Part shown: positions 1,338 to 32,709 of the stretch, in pieces
Position numbering within the stretch: position 1 is the first letter of the stretch
How the letters are laid out: each line of letters begins with the position of its first letter
Source: a virus
Reading direction: 5' to 3' (one strand)
Length of the DNA stretch: 32,709 nucleotides
IMG/VR virus record: IMGVR_UViG_3300045988_092706
Coordinates: 1 to 32,709 of that record
Position numbers and translations under genes: made by a program
The notes under the pieces: model-generated
What the model was told of the DNA's origin: nothing
The model's database searches: none
What the model saw: the letters and a program-made list of their open reading frames with translations, nothing else

Positions 1338-1512
1338 AGTAACCTCAACTAAAATCGAGAGAGCTATTATCGAGGCGAAGCGCGAGTGCGAAGACCTAAA
1401 CACAATCCAGGACTACGCCCTATTTTTGATTGACCACAGCGCGTACTGGCGCAGAGTGGGCTATCACGAAATCACGCGGCAATTAAAAGACTACTACTCA
1501 AAACAGGGGTAG
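1276..1512 (+). CDS. hypothetical protein, 78 aa (overlaps the upstream ORF by 62 nt in another frame)
   Basis: ORF only; the start is uncertain. Confidence 0.3.
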   Translation: MKTTADVNGYDATRRKKLNNRVTSTKIERAIIEAKRECEDLNTIQDYALFLIDHSAYWRRVGYHEITRQLKDYYSKQG

Positions 1513-1545
1513 TAGTTTTATTTTTATAAAGTTGTCCACAGGTCG

Positions 1546-1640
1546 AAAAAAAAGTATAAAAATCTCCACAAAAACCCTTGCATTTATTGAGAGGGTACAA
1601 TATACTAAGAACATAGCAAACGTAAGAACAAAGGAGAAAA
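1546..1640 (+). promoter_or_regulatory. promoter/leader cassette copy A: -35 TTGCAT 1578-1583, 17-bp spacer, -10 TATACT 1601-1606, conserved leader CATAGCAAACGTAAGAACAAAGGAG
   Basis: Near-identical to 31504-31600 and related to 25195-25279. Sigma70-like geometry. Confidence 0.6.
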
Positions 1641-1901: not shown

Positions 1902-2087
1902 ATGACAAAACTATACAACACAGCACTAGCAACATTAACAGCCTACGCAATTGCGCCCGAAGCAATCGCTACAGCGGTACTTATCATAGCGCTAACAATA
2001 AATGCTATCATTTATATAAATAAAACCCAGCAGAGCGCGCTAGCCGAGCCAGCACGCCGAGCATTAAGACGACAGAGAGGACTCTAA
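1902..2087 (+). CDS. small hydrophobic (membrane) protein, 61 aa
   Basis: ORF with a long hydrophobic stretch ALATLTAYAIAPEAIATAVLIIALTINAIIYI. Confidence 0.45.
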   Translation: MTKLYNTALATLTAYAIAPEAIATAVLIIALTINAIIYINKTQQSALAEPARRALRRQRGL

Positions 2088-2089
2088 AG

Positions 2090-2926
2090 ATGATTGAAAA
2101 AGTCAACCCAGACCACCCCGACAAATTAGCCGACCGAATAGCAGGCGCCCTCGTGGACTACGCCTATGAGGAGCAAGACGCTCCACGCGTAGCCTTTGAG
2201 GTGCTTCTCGGACACGGAGAGGTGAATATCATAGGTGAGAGCTCGGTATACGTACCGCGCCGCGTAGCCAAGCAAATCATAACGCGAATATTGAAGCACG
2301 AGGACTACAACCTGAATATGAACATTGTCGAGCAGGACGTGCGCTTAGCCGCGAACCAAGCCGAAGAACCACGCGCAGGTGATAACGGTATCTTCGCAGG
2401 CGAGCCAATCGACAAAGAGCAGTCGCTTCTTTCAAAAATCGCCCGAGGTATTCATCAAAAATACAACTCAGACGGTAAGTATATACTCGATATGAAGGCG
2501 GAGCGCCTCATCATCTGCCAGAGCGACGCAGAAGAGAACGCGCTAAGAGTAGACCTTTATAAAATCCTGGACGAAATCAAAGCCGAGGAGCTAAAAGACT
2601 ACGACATTGTTATAAATCCACTCGGCTTATGGTCGGGCGGCGAGAACGTCGACGCAGGAGCAACCAACCGCAAACTCGGCTCAGATATGGGCAGAGCCGT
2701 AACGGGCGGAGGGCTTCACGGTAAAGACCTCAGCAAAGCAGACGTAGCCGTGAACATTTACGCGCACATCATAGCCACAGGCAACAACAAGCGCAAAGAA
2801 TTAAGCTGCGCAATCGGCGACAACGAAATAGACGGAGTGCCCTACAAAGACATCGTGCTAATCGCCAAGCAATACGTCGACGAAATCGGAGGCTTCGAAC
2901 GCCTCGCAGAATGGGGGTTAGCATAA
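2090..2926 (+). CDS. metK: truncated S-adenosylmethionine synthetase (MetK/MAT) homolog, 278 aa
   Basis: N-terminal HPDKLADRIAGALVD aligns with MetK GHPDKIADQISDAVLD. RAGDNGIFAG aligns with GAGDQGLMFG. DAGATNRKLGSDMGRAVTGGGLHGKDLSKAD aligns with [34 protein letters not shown]. About 100 aa shorter than bacterial MetK. Confidence 0.75.
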   Translation: MIEKVNPDHPDKLADRIAGALVDYAYEEQDAPRVAFEVLLGHGEVNIIGESSVYVPRRVAKQIITRILKHEDYNLNMNIVEQDVRLAANQAEEPRAGDNGIFAGEPIDKEQSLLSKIARGIHQKYNSDGKYILDMKAERLIICQSDAEENALRVDLYKILDEIKAEELKDYDIVINPLGLWSGGENVDAGATNRKLGSDMGRAVTGGGLHGKDLSKADVAVNIYAHIIATGNNKRKELSCAIGDNEIDGVPYKDIVLIAKQYVDEIGGFERLAEWGLA

Positions 2927-2984: not shown

Positions 2985-3149
2985 ATGAACCCAGAACGAA
3001 GAAACGCACGCGACGGAGCCAACTACGTCCGAATACAGAAGGGACACAGCGTCCTTATGCACGTATTGCTAGCATTTTTTACAATGGGCTTTTCGCTAAT
3101 ATGGACAATCTACTACGCGATATCGCCGAACCACTACTTTCACGCATAG
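2985..3149 (+). CDS. small membrane protein, 54 aa (not in the ORF track, below the size cutoff)
   Basis: ATG 2985 preceded by AAGGAG. Sequence MNPERRNARDGANYVRIQKGHSVLMHVLLAFFTMGFSLIWTIYYAISPNHYFHA. Stop TAG at 3147-3149. Confidence 0.4.
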   Translation: MNPERRNARDGANYVRIQKGHSVLMHVLLAFFTMGFSLIWTIYYAISPNHYFHA

Positions 3150-24372: not shown

Positions 24373-25179
24373 ATGCTAAAAAACATACCATTTTACGCAA
24401 GTCTACTAAATCGAGAACTAGCCAACGGAAAAATAACCAAACACAGCCACGTGCTGGTTTATGGAGCCATAGAAACGCACGCGCTCGGCGATTATGGCTG
24501 TATTGCAAGCAATAAAACAATCGCGGCAGAAACAGGCTTCACAGCTGGAACCGTCGCTAACATCATAAGCGAACTCAACGCGTCGGGCTGGATTAAAGTA
24601 AACCTGGACGAGAAGCACCACAGAGTGAATATAGAGCCGAAGCTAACTATAAACGTCCCAACTTTTTCACAGGAAAGTCAAGAGCCAACAGGGGTAGACC
24701 CTTCACCCGCCGAGGAACACCCCCTACCCCGCCGAGGAACACCCCCTACACCCGCCGAAGAACCCCCCTATCACCCGCCGATGAACATAGAATACAGTAA
24801 TAGAAACAGTAATAGAAACAGTAATAGAAATACTCTACTTGTCCGCACTCGGACAAGCGAGGTGAGTAAAACCTCCGCAGAAGCTGCTGAAATAGTCGAA
24901 AAAATGCACGAAATGATAAAAAAACGACTACCAAACAGGGCGAACAAAAAGCGAACACAAGCACAGCTCCAAAAAGACATCGAAACAATCGAGAAAATCC
25001 ACAGACTGGACGGGTACAGCTACGCCGAAATTAACGCAGTGATGAAATGGTCGCAGGAGGACGACTTCTGGTCGCAAAATATTCTATCAACCGCAAAGCT
25101 TCGCAAGCAGTTTGACAAGCTGGTGCTTCGAATGAGAGCCGAGCAGAAGAAAAAGCGGGACAATATCGCTTTCATTTAA
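24373..25179 (+). CDS. replication initiator / replisome organizer with a winged-HTH N-terminus and DnaD-like C-terminus; carries iterons in its coding sequence, 268 aa
   Basis: RBS GAAGGAG. HTH TIAAETGFTAGTVANIISELNASGWIK. C-terminal GYSYAEINAVMKWSQEDDFWSQNIL (DnaD-like). Internal 22-bp x3.7 and 12-bp x3 tandem repeats. Confidence 0.55.
   Translation: MLKNIPFYASLLNRELANGKITKHSHVLVYGAIETHALGDYGCIASNKTIAAETGFTAGTVANIISELNASGWIKVNLDEKHHRVNIEPKLTINVPTFSQESQEPTGVDPSPAEEHPLPRRGTPPTPAEEPPYHPPMNIEYSNRNSNRNSNRNTLLVRTRTSEVSKTSAEAAEIVEKMHEMIKKRLPNRANKKRTQAQLQKDIETIEKIHRLDGYSYAEINAVMKWSQEDDFWSQNILSTAKLRKQFDKLVLRMRAEQKKKRDNIAFI
24704..24829 (+). repeat. iteron-like tandem repeats: about 3.7 copies of the 22-bp unit ACCCGCCGAGGAACACCCCCTA (24704-24786), then 3 perfect copies of ACAGTAATAGAA (24794-24829)
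   Basis: Direct repeats read from the sequence. Located inside the rep gene (encoding PAEEHPLPRRGTPPTPAEEPPYHPP and NSNRNSNRNSNR). Confidence 0.7.
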
Positions 25180-25194
25180 GAGGCTAAAAAATCT

Positions 25195-25279
25195 TTGAAA
25201 ATCTTCACAAAAAGGCTTGATATTTTTGAGAGAGTACAATATAATGAAAGTACAACAAACGTAAGAGAAAGGTAAAACT
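25195..25279 (+). promoter_or_regulatory. promoter/leader cassette copy B: -35 TTGATA 25217-25222, 17-bp spacer TTTTTGAGAGAGTACAA, -10 TATAAT 25240-25245
   Basis: Diverged copy of cassettes A and C, with a conserved spacer and leader core (CAAACGTAAGA). Confidence 0.6.
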
Positions 25280-25471
25280 ATGCAAGAATGCAAGCACGAA
25301 AACGCATATCTCGAAGAACCCTGCTGTGGGCGAGGCGAGAGCGGCTACGTCGAGTGCGCCTGCGGCGGAACATACGCGGTAGTATGCCCAGACTGCGGCG
25401 AAGAAGTCGACGAAGCAACCAAGAAGCGAGTTATAGAAGAAACGGAGCAACAAGATGATTACAGCGAATAG
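25280..25471 (+). CDS. small Cys-rich zinc-ribbon protein, 63 aa
   Basis: CKHENAYLEEPCCG and two further Cys pairs (CACGG, CPDCG). Confidence 0.5.
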   Translation: MQECKHENAYLEEPCCGRGESGYVECACGGTYAVVCPDCGEEVDEATKKRVIEETEQQDDYSE

Positions 25472-25892
25472 AACCTCCAGCCTAGCAGACAAGCTGCTAC
25501 AAATGGCGCTACACGACGAACTAGTCAACGGCGATTATAACGGCGACTTGCTCGCCCTCGCCAATGAGCTGGCGGAGGAGGTAGTTCTGCCAATCGACGA
25601 CAGCGGCGAGTTTATCGCCTTGCACGCCCCGCGAATACAGAAGCGACACCTGGTCGAAATCCTGGCAGGCGAAACGACCCGCGGAATAATCGCACCCGTC
25701 CAAATGGAAATCCAGGACGGCGACGAAGTGCTGGAAATCCACTACGAACCACTCGCGAGCCGAATTAACAACCAAATATTCACAGCTTGCCGAAGAATGA
25801 CAGGCAACGGCTTAGTGAGGTCAAGCACAGACCCCGAGAAGTTCTTAGAGCGAGCGATTGAGCGCTTCACGCGAACACCGCGCAAGGACTAG
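25455..25892 (+). CDS. hypothetical protein, 145 aa
   Basis: ORF overlapping the upstream gene by 17 nt. Confidence 0.45.
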   Translation: MITANRTSSLADKLLQMALHDELVNGDYNGDLLALANELAEEVVLPIDDSGEFIALHAPRIQKRHLVEILAGETTRGIIAPVQMEIQDGDEVLEIHYEPLASRINNQIFTACRRMTGNGLVRSSTDPEKFLERAIERFTRTPRKD

Positions 25893-25939
25893 CACAAATT
25901 GAGCCACTACAATATAATCAACTAAACAAGGAGAACGAA

Positions 25940-26755
25940 GTGGAAAAAATCAACGACATCGTAGCAGAAATCAAAGACGAACTCGAAAAAATGGAGATAG
26001 ACGTAGACAGCAAAGACGCACGCGCAAGCCTACGCTACGTGAGAGAGGCGCTCATAGAAGAGTCGCGCAAATCAGCCGACAAGCGCGTGGTAGGCAAGAA
26101 CGGAGCGCGCACGCTCGCCGGTATGATTGCGAAATGGCTGAACCTGAGCCTGCCCCTCGACGGTGTCAACGTCGTCATATCGGGCGCGAATATGACAATG
26201 GTTACATATCAGGGCTATAAGAACAAAGTGCTTAAATTGCACCCGAACGCGACCTTTGACGTCCAAGTAGTGCGCGAAGACGACGACTTTACGGTCGAAA
26301 AGCAGAGCGGGAAGGTCGTCTATTCTCACAAGATTAAGCCTTTCAGCAATTCAAAAATCGTCGGCGCGTATTGTGTTATTAAGACAGGCGACTCTGAACA
26401 CTACGAGGGTCTGTCAGCCGAAGACTTCGAAAAAATGAAGAAGAGTAGCCGCAACAACTACCTCTGGGAAAAATGGGACACAGAGTTTTGGCTAAAATCG
26501 GTCATAAAGCGAGCCTGCAAGCGCTACTTCTTCGAAGAGGTGAAAGACATCGACACAATCGACAATTCAGACTACGGACTGACAGAAGAGCCGCAAGAGG
26601 ACGCCTTTGAGCGATTAAAAAAAGCCGAAACGATAGCCGAATTAAAAGCTGCCTACGCGAGTCTAGCACCAGCGGAGCAAGCCTACGCCGCAACAGTCGC
26701 ACGCGAAAGACTGCGAAAAATCAAGGAAGAAACTGCGGTAAAAGTCGAGGGCTAA
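25940..26755 (+). CDS. recT: RecT-family single-strand annealing protein, 271 aa
   Basis: GTG after AAGGAGAACGAA. RecT-like block GAYCVIKTGDSEHYEGLSAEDFEKMKKSS...WEKWDTEFWLKSVIKRACKRYF. Confidence 0.65.
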   Translation: MEKINDIVAEIKDELEKMEIDVDSKDARASLRYVREALIEESRKSADKRVVGKNGARTLAGMIAKWLNLSLPLDGVNVVISGANMTMVTYQGYKNKVLKLHPNATFDVQVVREDDDFTVEKQSGKVVYSHKIKPFSNSKIVGAYCVIKTGDSEHYEGLSAEDFEKMKKSSRNNYLWEKWDTEFWLKSVIKRACKRYFFEEVKDIDTIDNSDYGLTEEPQEDAFERLKKAETIAELKAAYASLAPAEQAYAATVARERLRKIKEETAVKVEG

Positions 26756-26756
26756 A

Positions 26757-27425
26757 ATGGACACGACAACACACGAGCAGGGAACCGAGGACTGGTACAA
26801 AGACCGCCTCGGTATCCCGACCGCCAGCCGCTACGGCGATATCCTCGCCAAGCGCGGAGGGTTTGCAAGATACGAAAGCACCTCGCGCAAGAACTACCTC
26901 GCCGAATTATTGACCGAGCGGCTAACTGGTCAGCCATACAGCCGCTACGGCAAGACTAAATATATGGACTGGGGTACACAAATGGAGCCAGCCGCAAGGC
27001 TCAGGTATGAGCTAGAAACAGGCAACACAGTAGAAGAGCGCGGCTTAAAGAAACACCTCTTCCTAGAAACAGGAGCGAGCGCGGACGGAATAGTCGAGGT
27101 CGACAATTGGCGAGGCGAGGGCAAAGGCGGTATAGAAATAAAGAACCGCACACCAGCGCACCACCTCGAAGCACTCACGACAGGCAAAGTGCCGTCAATT
27201 TACATACCTCAAATCCAGGGAAATATGATGTGCGACAAGGAGCGGCTCTGGTGGGACTGGGTGAGCTACGCGCCAGACTTTTCAGAGAATGCACAGATAG
27301 TAGTAGTGCGCGTCTACCGCGACGAGGACTACATCAAGAACCTCGAAATTGAGGTGGCGCTATTCATCGACGAATTGAAAGCCGCAGAGAAAAAAGTCCG
27401 CGAATATAACGTAAAAGTATTGTAG
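26757..27425 (+). CDS. YqaJ-like (lambda Exo-type, PD-(D/E)XK) recombination exonuclease, 222 aa
   Basis: Hallmark GIPTASRYGDIL (G.TAS motif). Located immediately downstream of RecT. Confidence 0.65.
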   Translation: MDTTTHEQGTEDWYKDRLGIPTASRYGDILAKRGGFARYESTSRKNYLAELLTERLTGQPYSRYGKTKYMDWGTQMEPAARLRYELETGNTVEERGLKKHLFLETGASADGIVEVDNWRGEGKGGIEIKNRTPAHHLEALTTGKVPSIYIPQIQGNMMCDKERLWWDWVSYAPDFSENAQIVVVRVYRDEDYIKNLEIEVALFIDELKAAEKKVREYNVKVL

Positions 27426-27437
27426 CGTTACATAATT

Positions 27438-27448
27438 TTTGATATAAT
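27438..27448 (+). promoter_or_regulatory. extended -10 promoter TTTGATATAAT (-10 27443-27448)
   Basis: Third copy of the 11-mer. The leader to ATG 27481 contains RBS AAAGAAAGGG. Confidence 0.45.
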
Positions 27449-27480
27449 TAAGACACAACAAACTAAAAGAAAGGGTACGT

Positions 27481-28317
27481 ATGAACGAAGCCAACCAGGA
27501 ACTACGCCAAGCGGCGAATAAACAAATAGAAGCAATCTCACCGCTTAAAATTAAATCAAACGAGCTACTCGAGCGAGCCAAGAGCGTCAAAGTCGAAACA
27601 GCCGCAGACGTAAAGACCGCGAAGGAAGTCATAAAAGACATCACAGCACACAAGAAGTCAACAGAAGAATTACGAAAGAACTTCACACGACAATTAGACG
27701 ACGTAAAAAAGCAATTCATAAGCGCAGAGCGCGACATCTTAGCTCCAGCCGAAGAAGCTCGCGGAATTGTAGCTAACGAAATCCTAGCCTTTGAGCGCGC
27801 TGAGGAGGAGAAGAAGAAGCGCGAAGCAGAGCGCGTCTGGGTAAGCCTCCTAGAAATTAAGAGCGCGGTAGCAATCGACGACGCAAAAACACTCGAAGAC
27901 GTAGACAAGAGCGAGAAAGTCGCCGAGGAGCGCATAGCCGCATTAAACGACGACGCGAAGCACCCGCTGGCTATTGCCTTCATCGGCAAGCTTCGCCAGG
28001 AAATCGCAGAGCGAAAAATCGAGCTGGCGAAAAATCCAGAAACAGAGAAGGAAGAAGCCGAGCAACAGCTAGAAATCGACAAGGCGAAAGCCCTCGCGGA
28101 AAAAATGGAAGCCGAAGCCAGAGCCGCCGCCCGCGCAATCGAGAAGGAAGCGCCAAAGACAGGAAGTCGCGAGAAAATCACGGTCGAAATCGTGAACGCG
28201 AACGAAGTGCCACGAGAGCTTTGTGTACCAAGCGAGAGCCTCATCAAGGACTACGTAAAGAAAAGCGGCGCAGATATGGTGCCTGGCTGTATTATTAAAA
28301 GAGAGCGCGTCATTTAA
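27481..28317 (+). CDS. highly charged coiled-coil protein of unknown function, 278 aa
   Basis: E/K/R-rich (AFERAEEEKKKREAERVW). Located between the exonuclease and SSB genes. Confidence 0.5.
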   Translation: MNEANQELRQAANKQIEAISPLKIKSNELLERAKSVKVETAADVKTAKEVIKDITAHKKSTEELRKNFTRQLDDVKKQFISAERDILAPAEEARGIVANEILAFERAEEEKKKREAERVWVSLLEIKSAVAIDDAKTLEDVDKSEKVAEERIAALNDDAKHPLAIAFIGKLRQEIAERKIELAKNPETEKEEAEQQLEIDKAKALAEKMEAEARAAARAIEKEAPKTGSREKITVEIVNANEVPRELCVPSESLIKDYVKKSGADMVPGCIIKRERVI

Positions 28318-28334
28318 GAAAGGAGCTTATAAAA

Positions 28335-28742
28335 ATGGCAGACATTAACAACGTAACGCTGGTAGGAAGGCTGGTGCGCGACGCAGAAGCGCGCACCACA
28401 AAGTCGGGTAAAAACATAGCCGCCTTTACGCTAGCCGTGAGCGGAATTGAAAAAGAGTACGTCGACTTTATCGACTGCCTCGCCTGGGGAAAAACCGCGG
28501 ACGTGGTAACAAAATACACGAGCAAAGGCAAGCGCGTCGGTATTGTCGGAAAATTGCACATAAACAAATACGAAAACAAAGACGGCGAAAAACGCTCGCG
28601 AGCTGAGGTTATTGTAAACAGCATACAATTACTCTCAAGCGCAGAGGCGCCGAAGAAAGAAGAAACCGAACCAAGCGACGAGGTGAACCTCGACGACGTA
28701 AAACTCGACGAGCCAGTCGACCTATCGGAGATACCATTTTAA
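28335..28742 (+). CDS. ssb: single-stranded DNA-binding protein, 135 aa
   Basis: OB-fold N-terminus NNVTLVGRLVRDAEARTTKSGKNIAAFTLAV. Acidic C-terminal tail ending in IPF. Confidence 0.8.
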   Translation: MADINNVTLVGRLVRDAEARTTKSGKNIAAFTLAVSGIEKEYVDFIDCLAWGKTADVVTKYTSKGKRVGIVGKLHINKYENKDGEKRSRAEVIVNSIQLLSSAEAPKKEETEPSDEVNLDDVKLDEPVDLSEIPF

Positions 28743-28757
28743 GAGGAGGGAGAAAGA

Positions 28758-28976
28758 ATGAGGCAGAGAATTATAGACATAATAGCAAGGCTCTTTGTGA
28801 GCGTGGTAGTTTTCGCAATCGGAGGACTAATAACAATGCCGCTATTCATTTTTACGAACAGCCACAACTTCGTCATAAAGGTGATTGCTACGACATTTTC
28901 AGTACTGGCTATCTTAGTAATTGCGCTGATGATTATCACAATCTGGGTGCCACGAGATGACGACCTTGACGACTAG
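28758..28976 (+). CDS. small membrane protein, 72 aa
   Basis: Two hydrophobic helices. RBS GAGGAGGGAG. Confidence 0.45.
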   Translation: MRQRIIDIIARLFVSVVVFAIGGLITMPLFIFTNSHNFVIKVIATTFSVLAILVIALMIITIWVPRDDDLDD

Positions 28977-29364
28977 AAAATATCCGCTCGAGGCAGAAGA
29001 ACACAAAGCCTTTGTGAATTATCTCGAAGTTTTGCGCTTGCCGCACTTCCACGTGCCGAACGAGCAGAGCCAGCGAGCCTATCGAATGGTCAACCGAAAG
29101 CTGGGAGTATCGAGCGGAGTGCCTGACTTGTTTGTTATCATTAAATCAGAGCGAAACGGCAGAAGTAAGCTTATCGCTATCGAAATGAAGCGACAACGAG
29201 GCGCGCGCCCGACAGTATCGCCAAAGCAGAAGCTCTGGCTGGAAGAGTTGAAGCGCGCAGGAATTGACGGCTACGTAGCGTACGGCGCAACCGAAGCCAT
29301 AGACATCGTGAGAAAGGAGCTGGACAAGCTCAGGAAGGAAGACGACGACAGTGAAGTATTTTAA
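28957..29364 (+). CDS. VRR-NUC domain nuclease, 135 aa
   Basis: PD-(D/E)xK arrangement GVPDLFVI...IEMKRQRGARPTVSPKQKLWLEELKRAGIDGYVAYGATEA, typical of VRR-NUC. Confidence 0.6.
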   Translation: MTTLTTRKYPLEAEEHKAFVNYLEVLRLPHFHVPNEQSQRAYRMVNRKLGVSSGVPDLFVIIKSERNGRSKLIAIEMKRQRGARPTVSPKQKLWLEELKRAGIDGYVAYGATEAIDIVRKELDKLRKEDDDSEVF

Positions 29365-29977
29365 GCTAATTCAAGACACGCCAGAATGCAAAGCTGGCGC
29401 TATGTTTTACCAGACAGTAAACGGCGACGCTTTGGTATCGGTCGACAACGAAGCGTATGTTATCAAAATCGACAAAATAAACGACTTCGCGAAGTTCTTT
29501 GTAAAAGTCGATACGAAGCTGGCTCGGTATTTTAAGCCAGCAGTCGGCGCAAAGTACTACTACTTAACCGCAGAAGGCGAAGTGCGCGACACAGAAAATC
29601 GCGGCGAAATCACGGACGCGGCGCGAATATCACTCGGCAATAGCTTCGAGCTCTATCCAGACGCACTGGCGTATAAATCGGCGCTGATTGCACGAGCAGA
29701 GCTGGCGGCGCACTCAGCGAACCAGTACCAGCCGAACTGGAAAAACGCCTACAAAGAAATCAAAGAGAAAGAAGGCAGCTACGAAGCGACGAAGCTCGTC
29801 GAAAACACGGTGGCTTATATTATCGCGCAAGACAAGCGCACAGGCGAGCTGGTGGTTGTGCCTATGAGCGGAGCCGTGAACTATAACCCAATCGCGTACT
29901 ACGCAACCGAGGACGACGCAAAGAAAGCGCTATCACAGCAATCAAAAAACTATAAAACTTATATGGAGGCTCAATAA
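29351..29977 (+). CDS. hypothetical protein, 208 aa
   Basis: GTG start overlapping the upstream gene; ORF only. Confidence 0.4.
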   Translation: MKYFKLIQDTPECKAGAMFYQTVNGDALVSVDNEAYVIKIDKINDFAKFFVKVDTKLARYFKPAVGAKYYYLTAEGEVRDTENRGEITDAARISLGNSFELYPDALAYKSALIARAELAAHSANQYQPNWKNAYKEIKEKEGSYEATKLVENTVAYIIAQDKRTGELVVVPMSGAVNYNPIAYYATEDDAKKALSQQSKNYKTYMEAQ

Positions 29978-30178
29978 ATGACGACCAACAAAGAAATCAC
30001 TCTGCCAATCGCAGAGTATAAGAAATTGAAGAAAGACGCGGAAAAATGGCGAGCCTTTCACGAAAAAGTAGCCGCAAACGCGAAAAAACGCTGGCAGAAG
30101 CGCACACCTGAAGAACGAGCCGCAGAAATGCAAGAGCTAAGAAGCCATAGAAAGTGCTACCGAAAAGATGAAGTATAG
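29978..30178 (+). CDS. hypothetical basic protein, 66 aa
   Basis: ORF directly abutting the upstream stop. Confidence 0.35.
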   Translation: MTTNKEITLPIAEYKKLKKDAEKWRAFHEKVAANAKKRWQKRTPEERAAEMQELRSHRKCYRKDEV

Positions 30179-31388
30179 AAACCTTTCCGAATTGCACAAG
30201 CTCGAAGATAATCCGCGAACAATCGACAAGGACAGCTTCGACTCGCTCTGTCAATCGATTAAAGACAATCCTGACTACTTCGAAGCGCGCCCGCTCATTT
30301 TAAGCAACAGGACAGGTAAGCTGGTTATTTTAGGAGGAAATCAGCGCTACGAAGCCGCGAAGAAGCTCGGGCTGGAAAAAGTACCAACGCACCTCATCGA
30401 GGGGCTGACAGAGGAGCGCGAGGAAGAAATCACAATTCGCGACAACGTCAACAACGGCGACTGGGATTGGGACAAGCTCGCGAACAGGTACGACTATGAG
30501 AAGCTCGACGAATGGGGCGTGGAGGTGCCTGAACTCGACAAAGAAGAAGACGACACCAAAATTGAAGAGGTGCCGACGCCAGAAATCGAAGAAGCCGCCA
30601 AAAGCGAACTCGGAAAAATCTACAAGCTTGGCGAGCATATGCTGATGTGTGGCGACAGCACGAAGGCTGAGGACGTCTTTACTCTTATGGGGGGGGCGAC
30701 AGCGGCGCTTATTCATACAGACCCACCTTATGGAGTGTCATATAACTCGGACACACAGGGCTCAATCCAGAACGACGAAATCGTAGGCTCGGAGCTTTAC
30801 GAGTTCTTAAATAAAGCACTTAAAAACGCATACGCGACTGAGCGAGAGTTTTACAAAGCAATCGAAGACGCAGGCTTTGTAGTCAAACAGCAAATCATCT
30901 GGAACAAAGAAAGCCTGGTGCTTGGGCGAGCTTCTTATCACTGGAAGCACGAACCGTGCTACTTGGCTTTCAAAGACGGACTACGCCCAGAGGAGGCAGA
31001 AGAGCGAAAGTCGACGACGGTCTGGGATAGTCCCGAAATCCTCAAGACCCTGTCGAAAAAACAGCTTCTCGAAGAAATCGAGAAGTGGAAAGACGACAGC
31101 ACTGTCTGGGACTTGAAGCGCGACCCTCGGTCGGAATATATTCACCCGACACAGAAGCCTGTCGCGATACCAGCGCGAGCAATTAAAAAGCACAGCAAAG
31201 AAGGCGACACGATACTCGACCTCTTCGCAGGCTCAGGCTCAACCCTACTAGCGTGCGAACAGCTAGGCAGGAAATGTCGCACAATGGAACTAGACCCGCG
31301 CTTTGTGGACAGAATACGCAAGCGCTATCACTATTTTCAGACTGGCTCGACTGACGGCTGGGAAGAAGCTACTCCCGCGATAAATTAA
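30168..31388 (+). CDS. ParB-like nuclease domain fused to a beta-class DNA (N6-adenine/N4-cytosine) methyltransferase, 406 aa
   Basis: N-terminal LVILGGNQRYEAAKKLGLEKVP (ParB/Srx fold). Motif IV LIHTDPPYGVSYN precedes motif I ILDLFAGSGSTLLA (FxGxG). Confidence 0.75.
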   Translation: MKYRNLSELHKLEDNPRTIDKDSFDSLCQSIKDNPDYFEARPLILSNRTGKLVILGGNQRYEAAKKLGLEKVPTHLIEGLTEEREEEITIRDNVNNGDWDWDKLANRYDYEKLDEWGVEVPELDKEEDDTKIEEVPTPEIEEAAKSELGKIYKLGEHMLMCGDSTKAEDVFTLMGGATAALIHTDPPYGVSYNSDTQGSIQNDEIVGSELYEFLNKALKNAYATEREFYKAIEDAGFVVKQQIIWNKESLVLGRASYHWKHEPCYLAFKDGLRPEEAEERKSTTVWDSPEILKTLSKKQLLEEIEKWKDDSTVWDLKRDPRSEYIHPTQKPVAIPARAIKKHSKEGDTILDLFAGSGSTLLACEQLGRKCRTMELDPRFVDRIRKRYHYFQTGSTDGWEEATPAIN

Positions 31389-32553: not shown

Positions 32554-32709
32554 AATATAAACTACTTAAAGACTTGCCCTTTGCAAAAGCGGGCGAGGTC
32601 TTCGAAAGAGTAACCTATAAGAGCAAAGACGGTCTGTCAGATTATGATTACTTTAAAACCAGCAAGCGCGAAAAAGACGGTGAAGATGAGGTTCTCTTTA
32701 CTATCGATT
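32550..32709 (+). CDS. 5' part of the junction-spanning gene (continues at 1..510)
   Basis: GTG 32550 overlaps the HNH stop (GTGA). In frame with the repeat 32655-32709, which equals 1-55. Confidence 0.5.
   Translation, partial: MKYKLLKDLPFAKAGEVFERVTYKSKDGLSDYDYFKTSKREKDGEDEVLFTID
32655..32709 (+). repeat. 55-bp exact duplicate of nt 1-55 (circular closure or terminal redundancy of the assembly)
   Basis: Direct string identity. Confidence 0.9.

Follow-up and report, generated by a model that had tools for sequence, protein, structure and literature searches.

The window analyzed here is the whole 32,709-nucleotide (nt) stretch covering positions 1 to 32,709 of the IMG/VR virus record IMGVR_UViG_3300045988_092706, and the gene under study lies at 2090..2926 on its plus strand. 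The product of 278 amino acids (aa) was homologous, far beyond chance, to methionine adenosyltransferase (MAT; MetK in bacteria), the enzyme that makes S-adenosylmethionine (SAM) from ATP and methionine. Judging from sequence and gene order, it is probably an active, minimal SAM synthetase that mainly supplies the phage's own N6/N4 DNA methylase, which is fused to a ParB-N domain. Short MATs of this kind formed a very large phage/prophage family and were not an oddity of one phage.

Homology, trimming and conserved residues

The gene and its motifs were located as follows:

2090..2926, plus strand: MAT-like gene, 278 aa, PHROG 1569 family; ATG at 2090, TAA at 2924-2926
2114..2125, plus strand: HPDK motif, aa 9-12, equivalent to E. 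coli MetK H14, D16 and K17 (anchored residue map)
2372..2389, plus strand: RAGDNG block, aa 95-100, equivalent to GAGDQG, with D98 = D118 (residue map, family alignment and hhalign)
2471..2479, plus strand: D128-G129-K130, equivalent to MetK D163-A164-K165 (family invariance and order of elements in the model)
2615..2686, plus strand: NPLGLWSGGENVDAGATNRKLGSD, aa 176-199, with W181 = F230, D188 = D238, R194 = R244 and K195 = K245
2705..2743, plus strand: GGGLHGKDLSKAD, the P-loop, aa 206-218, with K212 = K265, K216 = K269 and D218 = D271

A preliminary description of this DNA had reported a phage-encoded, shortened but motif-complete MetK-like product with HPDK, RAGDNG and GGGLHGKDLSKAD motifs. 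All three motifs were found where it had placed them, and MAT homology was borne out by profile, PDB and hhalign matches. The Pfam domain S-AdoMet_synt_N (PF00438) was recognized at E 1.6e-10 with 41.9 bits, above the gathering cutoff of 33.1. Solved MATs in the PDB, about 18-26% identical to the phage protein, were matched down to E 2.6e-12 in a single-sequence search and down to E 1e-14 with the family profile; hhalign of the family profile against E. coli MetK gave a probability of 96.8% over 263 columns. The profile of phrog_1569, labelled 'unknown function' in PHROGs, was matched over the full length (aa 1-276; E 5.3e-60, 204.7 bits). An AlphaFold2 model built from an alignment of 84 family members reached a pLDDT of 89.1 and a pTM of 0.89. 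When this model was compared with the PDB by Foldseek, the top 50 matches were all MATs (query-normalised TM-score 0.66-0.78), indicating that about 95% of the protein belongs to the MAT core, and nothing significant was found in the BFVD viral structure library. An AlphaFold model had earlier been proposed as a way to see which domain was missing; none was missing, and in the predicted structure the three tandem beta-alpha-beta-beta-alpha-beta domains of the MAT superfamily were all kept in trimmed form.

The phage protein was 106 aa shorter than E. coli MetK (278 vs 384 aa). The missing residues were placed by anchoring the sequence on unambiguous motifs, with the E. coli numbering verified against the MG1655 gene: 6 were lost at the N-terminus, 11 within MetK positions 56-98, 4 in the gating-loop region, 29 in the central domain, 4 around the P-loop, 7 in the C-terminal domain and 45 in the C-terminal tail. 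The earlier statement that roughly 100 aa had gone, mostly from the central region and the extreme C-terminus, was roughly right for the 45 tail and 29 central residues but incomplete, as a further 21 aa had gone from the N-terminal third, part of them in the gating-loop region, and 11 aa elsewhere.

The map from E. coli MetK to the phage protein was as follows:

Identical, 16 residues: H14 to H9, D16 to D11, K17 to K12, E42 to E37, E55 to E50, Q98 to Q82, D118 to D98, D163 to D128, K165 to K130, D238 to D188, R244 to R194, K245 to K195, K265 to K212, K269 to K216, D271 to D218, I302 to I242
Replaced: I102 to L86, F230 to W181
Variable: R229 to L180

The motif residues thus aligned to the catalytic positions of MetK, with F230 replaced by W181. 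Every mapped residue of the query except L180 was invariant across the 84 members, which were mostly 55-64% identical to the query; W181 itself was among the invariant ones, and the canonical GDQG had become GDNG in the phage family. About 80 alignment columns were invariant in total, all catalytic residues included. In the E. coli MAT structure (1RG9), SAM is contacted by E55, Q98 and I102 from one chain and by H14, D163, R229, F230 and D238 from the other (PMC8727953). Both half-sites were conserved in the phage family, which argues that the composite active site of the dimer is retained. The phosphate and metal roles of the mapped residues are those given in the MetK literature. Sequence aligners disagreed in the D128-G129-K130 stretch, where the MAFFT and HMMER alignments were ambiguous. 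This stretch was equated with D163-A164-K165 because it was family-invariant and fitted the strand after the central-domain helix in the model. The MAFFT alignment misplaced the central-domain gap, and its R119/K165 pairing was rejected because invariance in the family and the succession of secondary-structure elements favored D128-G129-K130.

The gene was under purifying selection. The ratio of nonsynonymous to synonymous substitution rates (dN/dS) was 0.055, 0.133 and 0.155 at dS of about 0.32-0.34 in comparisons with two same-species homologues, and the GC content of the gene, overall and at third codon positions, matched that of the rest of the genome. It was intact in 12 of the 13 same-species genomes that had enough upstream sequence. 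In one same-species genome (L179, 3791-4620) the gene was split into two frames; the frameshift may be genuine or may come from faulty assembly.

A word-indexed search placed at least 8000 clusters (90% identity) in the family. Nearly all of the best 120 of these were 260-283 aa long, with PF00438 as the sole precomputed domain, and a few of the 120 carried the JGI name 'S-adenosylmethionine synthetase'. An exhaustive search of 50%-identity representatives gave 1353 matches at E <= 1e-3, including 121 at E <= 1e-30. Close phage relatives in GenBank (50-56% identity), from gut 'NatCom' phages and Streptococcus Javan108, 117 and 422, were annotated as 'hypothetical protein'; a distant group (26-31% identity) comprising Phi1207.3, phiNJ3 and many Javan prophages was annotated as S-adenosylmethionine synthetase. 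A megablast of the region against annotated phages returned one short unrelated match and no close annotated relative. Short-form relatives were also found in prophage-like regions of genomes and metagenome-assembled genomes (MAGs) labelled Clostridia, Erysipelotrichaceae, Streptococcus, Ligilactobacillus, Prevotella, Treponema and others. Loci with short MATs of 53-57% identity bore the labels Methanobrevibacter (L154, MAG contig JAFRFB010000096.1), Prevotella (L097-L113), Treponema, Bacteroidaceae and Firmicutes, a breadth that reflects either a very broad host range of the cassette or mis-binned phage contigs. Five representatives (P0136, P0149, P0165, P0169 and P0173) were longer, at 346-415 aa, with about 60-100 extra residues after residue 60-74 or so; this insert in the N-terminal domain was not recognized by Pfam. 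Among the longer representatives no MAT-methylase fusion was found, the extra length consisting of insertions or N-terminal extensions, and one was a chimera with capsid and protease domains.

Linkage to DNA methylases and the proposed role

The genes around the MAT homologues strongly backed the link to phage DNA methylation that the preliminary description had suggested. A homologue of the window's ParB-N-fused methyltransferase was the immediate same-strand neighbor in 56 of 80 IMG/VR loci (upstream in 34, downstream in 21 and an overlapping call in 1) and lay within a few kb in 10 more; it was absent from the other 14. The two genes were immediate neighbors in 55 of the 66 loci that carried the methylase, as against about 23% expected from random placement within the locus, giving a rough binomial P of about 6e-25 (the loci are not phylogenetically independent). 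The neighbors in loci lacking this homologue included another N6_N4 methylase, a C5 methylase, a TET-associated glycosyltransferase (TAGT), a weak radical-SAM match and a pyridoxal phosphate (PLP)-dependent enzyme. In 80 GTDB genome loci, examined by single-sequence search, a methylase was adjacent in 28 and within 3 kb in 13. The stop codon of the methylase overlapped the start codon of the MAT gene in two loci (L005 and L006). The order was methylase, MAT, terminase in Javan117; MAT, adenine methylase, cytosine methylase in Javan108; and MAT, DNA methyltransferase in Ruminococcus phage NatCom_38182 (Ca. Heliusvirales).

Distinct flanking proteins from about 160 loci (142 upstream, 138 downstream) were then scanned with Pfam. 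Methyltransferases made up 61 of the 142 upstream and 39 of the 138 downstream neighbors, and radical-SAM proteins accounted for 8 more. The numbers of neighbors per family were:

N6_N4_Mtase: 45 upstream, 35 downstream
ParB_N: 16 upstream, 35 downstream
Cons_hypoth95 methyltransferase: 11 upstream, 4 downstream
C5 DNA methylase: 3 upstream
D12 methylase: 2 upstream
Radical SAM: 4 upstream, 4 downstream
Small terminase (Terminase_4): 27 upstream
Large terminase families: about 30 downstream

The pair of MAT and methylase stood beside packaging genes in many relatives, for example L024, L026, L029, L030, L032, L183 (Javan108) and L184 (NatCom_38182), which suggests a mobile cassette landing at, or between, packaging genes.

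The first 55 nt of the window were identical to its last 55 nt (32655-32709), and two related contigs were collinear across the junction, indicating that the window is a complete, circularly closed phage genome of about 32,654 bp. All recognizable genes were on the plus strand, and no integrase was detected in the window. The principal genes were:

4650, plus strand: large terminase
6146, plus strand: portal
7533, plus strand: minor head protein
13894, plus strand: tape measure, followed by tail genes
21868, plus strand: endolysin
24373-29400, plus strand: replication/recombination block with DnaD/O-like initiator, RecT, exonuclease, SSB and VRR-NUC
30168..31388, plus strand: DNA methyltransferase with ParB_N and beta-class N6_N4_Mtase domains (Pfam and PHROG matches)

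The DNA methyltransferase that had been reported at 30168..31388 was thereby confirmed; its DPPY motif (aa 185) precedes FAGSG (aa 353), the beta-class order, and it is the probable consumer of the SAM. Two alleles of this gene were present within the phage species (large terminase 96-99% identical), one of 406-421 aa with DPPY, as in the window, and one of 490 aa with TCPPY (L169 2871-4340, L171 1537-3006 and L172 2614-3876, compared with 30168-31388 in the window). The alleles shared the ParB-N part alone (aa 1-121, 96-99% identical), and their methylase moieties were unrelated. This is a domain swap that presumably changed methylation specificity while the MAT was retained. A search with the large terminase for related phages without the MAT, as a test of co-loss, returned the same species only (96-99% identical). 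The distal end of the replication/DNA-metabolism block was occupied by the MAT gene, which lay 1.7 kb and four small open reading frames (ORFs) upstream of the large terminase and bordered the packaging genes. The earlier label 'early region' is plausible for this position.

Under the reading that we favor, the compact MAT would form a homodimer like all MATs, whose flat beta-sheet interface would hold two active sites, and would make SAM from ATP and methionine in the infected cell. This SAM would feed the phage's ParB-N-fused methylase and, in relatives, extra C5 or N6 methylases too. Methylation of newly replicated phage genomes could then be rapid and complete by the time of packaging, and would protect the progeny from restriction in the next host. 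The metK genes of Firmicutes are controlled by riboswitches. No Rfam family was found in the whole window at gathering thresholds, hence no recognizable SAM riboswitch before the MAT gene, so the gene would be independent of the feedback acting on host metK. At about 72% of MetK length, the protein would, if active, be among the smallest known MATs and would define the minimal catalytic core of an enzyme on which much engineering for the synthesis of SAM analogues has been done. A methyl-donor supply of their own would then accompany the anti-restriction methylases of many phages of the gut and of streptococci, and a gene of 'unknown function' in PHROGs, or a 'hypothetical protein' in GenBank, would become interpretable as a very common module.

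The immediate surroundings of the MAT gene held the following features:

1487..1519, plus strand: terminator-like hairpin with T-run (consensus scan only), which may close the transcription unit 5' of the block containing the MAT gene
1578..1606, plus strand: weak promoter-like TTGCAT-17 nt-TATACT, read by eye and below scan criteria, 5' of ORF 1645 and of the MAT block
1902..2087, plus strand: strongly hydrophobic 61-aa ORF whose stop lies 2 nt before the MAT ATG
2075..2080, plus strand: GAGAGG, a putative Shine-Dalgarno-like sequence 9 nt 5' of the MAT ATG, read from the sequence
2985-3149: 54-aa ORF just 3' of the MAT gene, matching PHROG 14499 ('membrane protein', moron/host-takeover category) and PHROG 29438

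The small ORFs on either side of the MAT gene gave almost no matches when scanned with PHROG and Pfam. A GC-rich hairpin with a stem of 12-13 bp (GGGGGCG...CGCCCCC) was present at 1855-1890, between ORFs 1645-1851 and 1902-2087. Only in minus-strand orientation was it flagged as terminator-like by the scan; on the plus strand the ribosome-binding site of the next ORF comes after it. A 72-aa ORF at 515-733 matched the KGG stress-induced bacterial acidophilic repeat (PF10685; 27 bits vs 20.4), which is unusual in a phage.

Counter-evidence and alternative explanations

Several observations weigh against an active MAT dedicated to the methylase. With respect to the protein, the Pfam central domain PF02772 had no match at E <= 1, and the C-terminal domain PF02773 scored 16.2 bits, below its gathering cutoff of 25. 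The NCBIfam metK equivalog model TIGR01034 was failed by a wide interval (54.8 bits vs a cutoff of 309.4), whereas Orf29 of Phi1207.3, used as a control, passed it with 426.6 bits; the earlier term 'MetK-like' accordingly holds in the sense of a MAT superfamily homologue and not in that of a curated MetK equivalog. The P-loop was one residue shorter (GGGLHGKD vs GGGAFSGKD) and contained an invariant His210, the position equivalent to R229 was variable, and a conserved GGFExLAEWG ending stood in place of the tail that is conserved at the C-terminus of canonical MATs. With respect to the genome, the methylase and MAT genes of the window were not adjacent; the methylase stop was about 3.36 kb upstream of the MAT start on the circle, with about a dozen small unannotated ORFs between them, spanning the junction. 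No methylase was found in 38 of the 80 genome loci by the limited single-sequence search, and a minority of relatives had none within +/-6-8 kb. In one 99-kb contig (L004, 3798-7401) the short MAT was situated between an RNA ligase and PNKP pair of RNA-repair type and a PTH2 peptidyl-tRNA hydrolase, with no methylase within 6 kb, a context that does not fit methylase supply. Hosts already own a MetK, and the need for extra SAM is an assumption. Lastly, our literature search brought up no study of a phage MAT, whether biochemical, structural or genetic; matches to 'metK' that concerned H. pylori prophage integration sites, riboswitch motifs and Ralstonia methylomes were set aside as irrelevant.

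The likeliest alternative is an active SAM synthetase acting as a general auxiliary or host-takeover gene and not as a dedicated partner of the methylase. It would raise or maintain the SAM pool for any process that needs SAM, such as radical-SAM enzymes, RNA or protein methylation or polyamines, or buffer the pool against depletion by competing elements. About 40% of relatives had no methylase as immediate neighbor, the methylase of the window itself was 3.4 kb away, and the other neighbors included radical-SAM and PLP-dependent enzymes, the TET-associated glycosyltransferase, an amidoligase and the RNA-repair genes; virome papers also list K00789 as a generic auxiliary gene (PMC11283538, PMC13644194). 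However, adjacency to DNA methylases was far above random in both gene orders, and no other SAM-dependent enzyme was detected in the window. We regard this explanation as unlikely, with some chance of being right.

A further reading, for which we see a rather small chance, is that of a phage-specific minimal lineage with properties absent from MetK, which together with interchangeable ParB-N-fused methylases forms a self-sufficient mobile cassette of 'epigenetic armour'. Such a lineage could possibly be dimer-only and free of product inhibition and riboswitch control, or else relaxed or altered in its substrate use so as to yield a non-canonical sulfonium cofactor. In a cassette of this kind the specificity of the methylase would be swapped while the source of SAM was kept.

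Altered chemistry, as an explanation of its own, is improbable. Here an enzyme of MAT fold would differ in its nucleotide or amino-acid substrate or in product inhibition, and would make a non-canonical sulfonium cofactor, or SAM while host MetK is shut off, possibly for an unusual DNA modification. The score far below the MetK equivalog threshold, the shortened P-loop with His210, the loss of R229 and the change of F230 to W are consistent with this, as are the hypermodification-type neighbors of some relatives (TAGT, radical SAM, amidoligase). However, the methionine and adenosine contacts listed for E. coli MAT were all kept or conservatively replaced (H14, E55, Q98, I102 to L, D163, F230 to W, D238 and I302), and the dominant partners were ordinary N6/N4 and C5 DNA methylases, which use SAM.

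It is very improbable that the protein is an inhibitor or decoy of host MetK that lowers SAM through dead heterodimers or substrate sequestration and thereby disables SAM-dependent restriction or bacteriophage exclusion (BREX), an outcome analogous to that of the T3 SAM lyase. Given the composite active sites of MATs, poisoning of the host enzyme by a foreign subunit is conceivable in principle, and phages are known to attack MetK (T3 SAM lyase-MetK complex 8bb1, among the Foldseek matches; 10.1101/2023.02.27.530186). By contrast, both catalytic half-sites were family-invariant, which a poison subunit would not need, and a SAM-depleting protein would be expected to show the reverse of the tight linkage to methylases that consume SAM. 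The low identity to bacterial MATs (about 20-26%) also makes a matching heterodimer interface with host MetK unlikely. The suggestion in the preliminary description that the gene might perturb BREX or type I/III restriction-modification (R-M) systems was unsupported: the strategy documented for phage T3 is the opposite one of SAM destruction and MetK inhibition, effective because these defences need SAM, and extra SAM would not obviously harm them.

A functionless, decaying remnant of a captured metK, to which the 106-aa deficit and the L179 frameshift might point, was rejected and is effectively refuted by the low dN/dS (0.055-0.155), the size and uniform length of the family, the invariant columns with all catalytic residues and the confidently predicted compact fold.

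Comparison with known systems

The idea that a phage MAT feeds a phage methylase has already been published, which limits the surprise of the present reading: SAM supply for the phage methylase was proposed in 2014 for orf29 of Phi1207.3 by Iannelli et al. (PMC4260502). Orf29, from a Streptococcus prophage, is likewise a phage product whose gene separates the replication module from the packaging module; a ParB-like + N6/N4 methylase (orf32) and a C5 methylase (orf33) are encoded about 1 kb downstream of it. However, it is 353 aa long, keeps all three Pfam domains and is only about 27-29% identical to the window protein; the short form is a separate and much more divergent lineage than this longer, orthodox type. 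Compared with canonical MetK (E. coli b2942; TIGR01034; PF00438 + PF02772 + PF02773; 384 aa), the short form is phage-borne, has 278 aa, lacks the 45-aa C-terminal tail, has a P-loop one residue shorter, replaces F230 with W and is variable at R229.

Phage studies routinely list K00789 among auxiliary genes. It was present in 58.9% of Ca. Heliusvirales genomes, with a C5 methylase in 67% (PMC11283538), and was an abundant phage gene in anaerobic digesters, where its role was explicitly called undetermined (PMC13644194). The short MAT of NatCom_38182, a member of Ca. Heliusvirales, was 55% identical to the window protein and directly upstream of a DNA methyltransferase. These reports, however, give annotation counts only and do not analyze the architecture of the short form, its residues or its linkage. 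The T3 SAM lyase is similar in being a phage protein that manipulates the SAM of the host where restriction and BREX are concerned, but it has an unrelated fold and acts in the opposite direction: it destroys SAM and inhibits MetK (10.1101/2023.02.27.530186), disabling defences that use SAM as a cofactor rather than feeding a methylase. Relative to the literature on these systems, the recognition of the short form as a lineage of its own appears to be new: its members are uniformly compact, and the form falls below the MetK equivalog cutoff although it has lost no catalytic residue. The mapping of its trimming and the quantified, bidirectional linkage to ParB-N-fused methylases also appear to be new, as does the exchange of the methylase catalytic domain within a phage species that kept its MAT.

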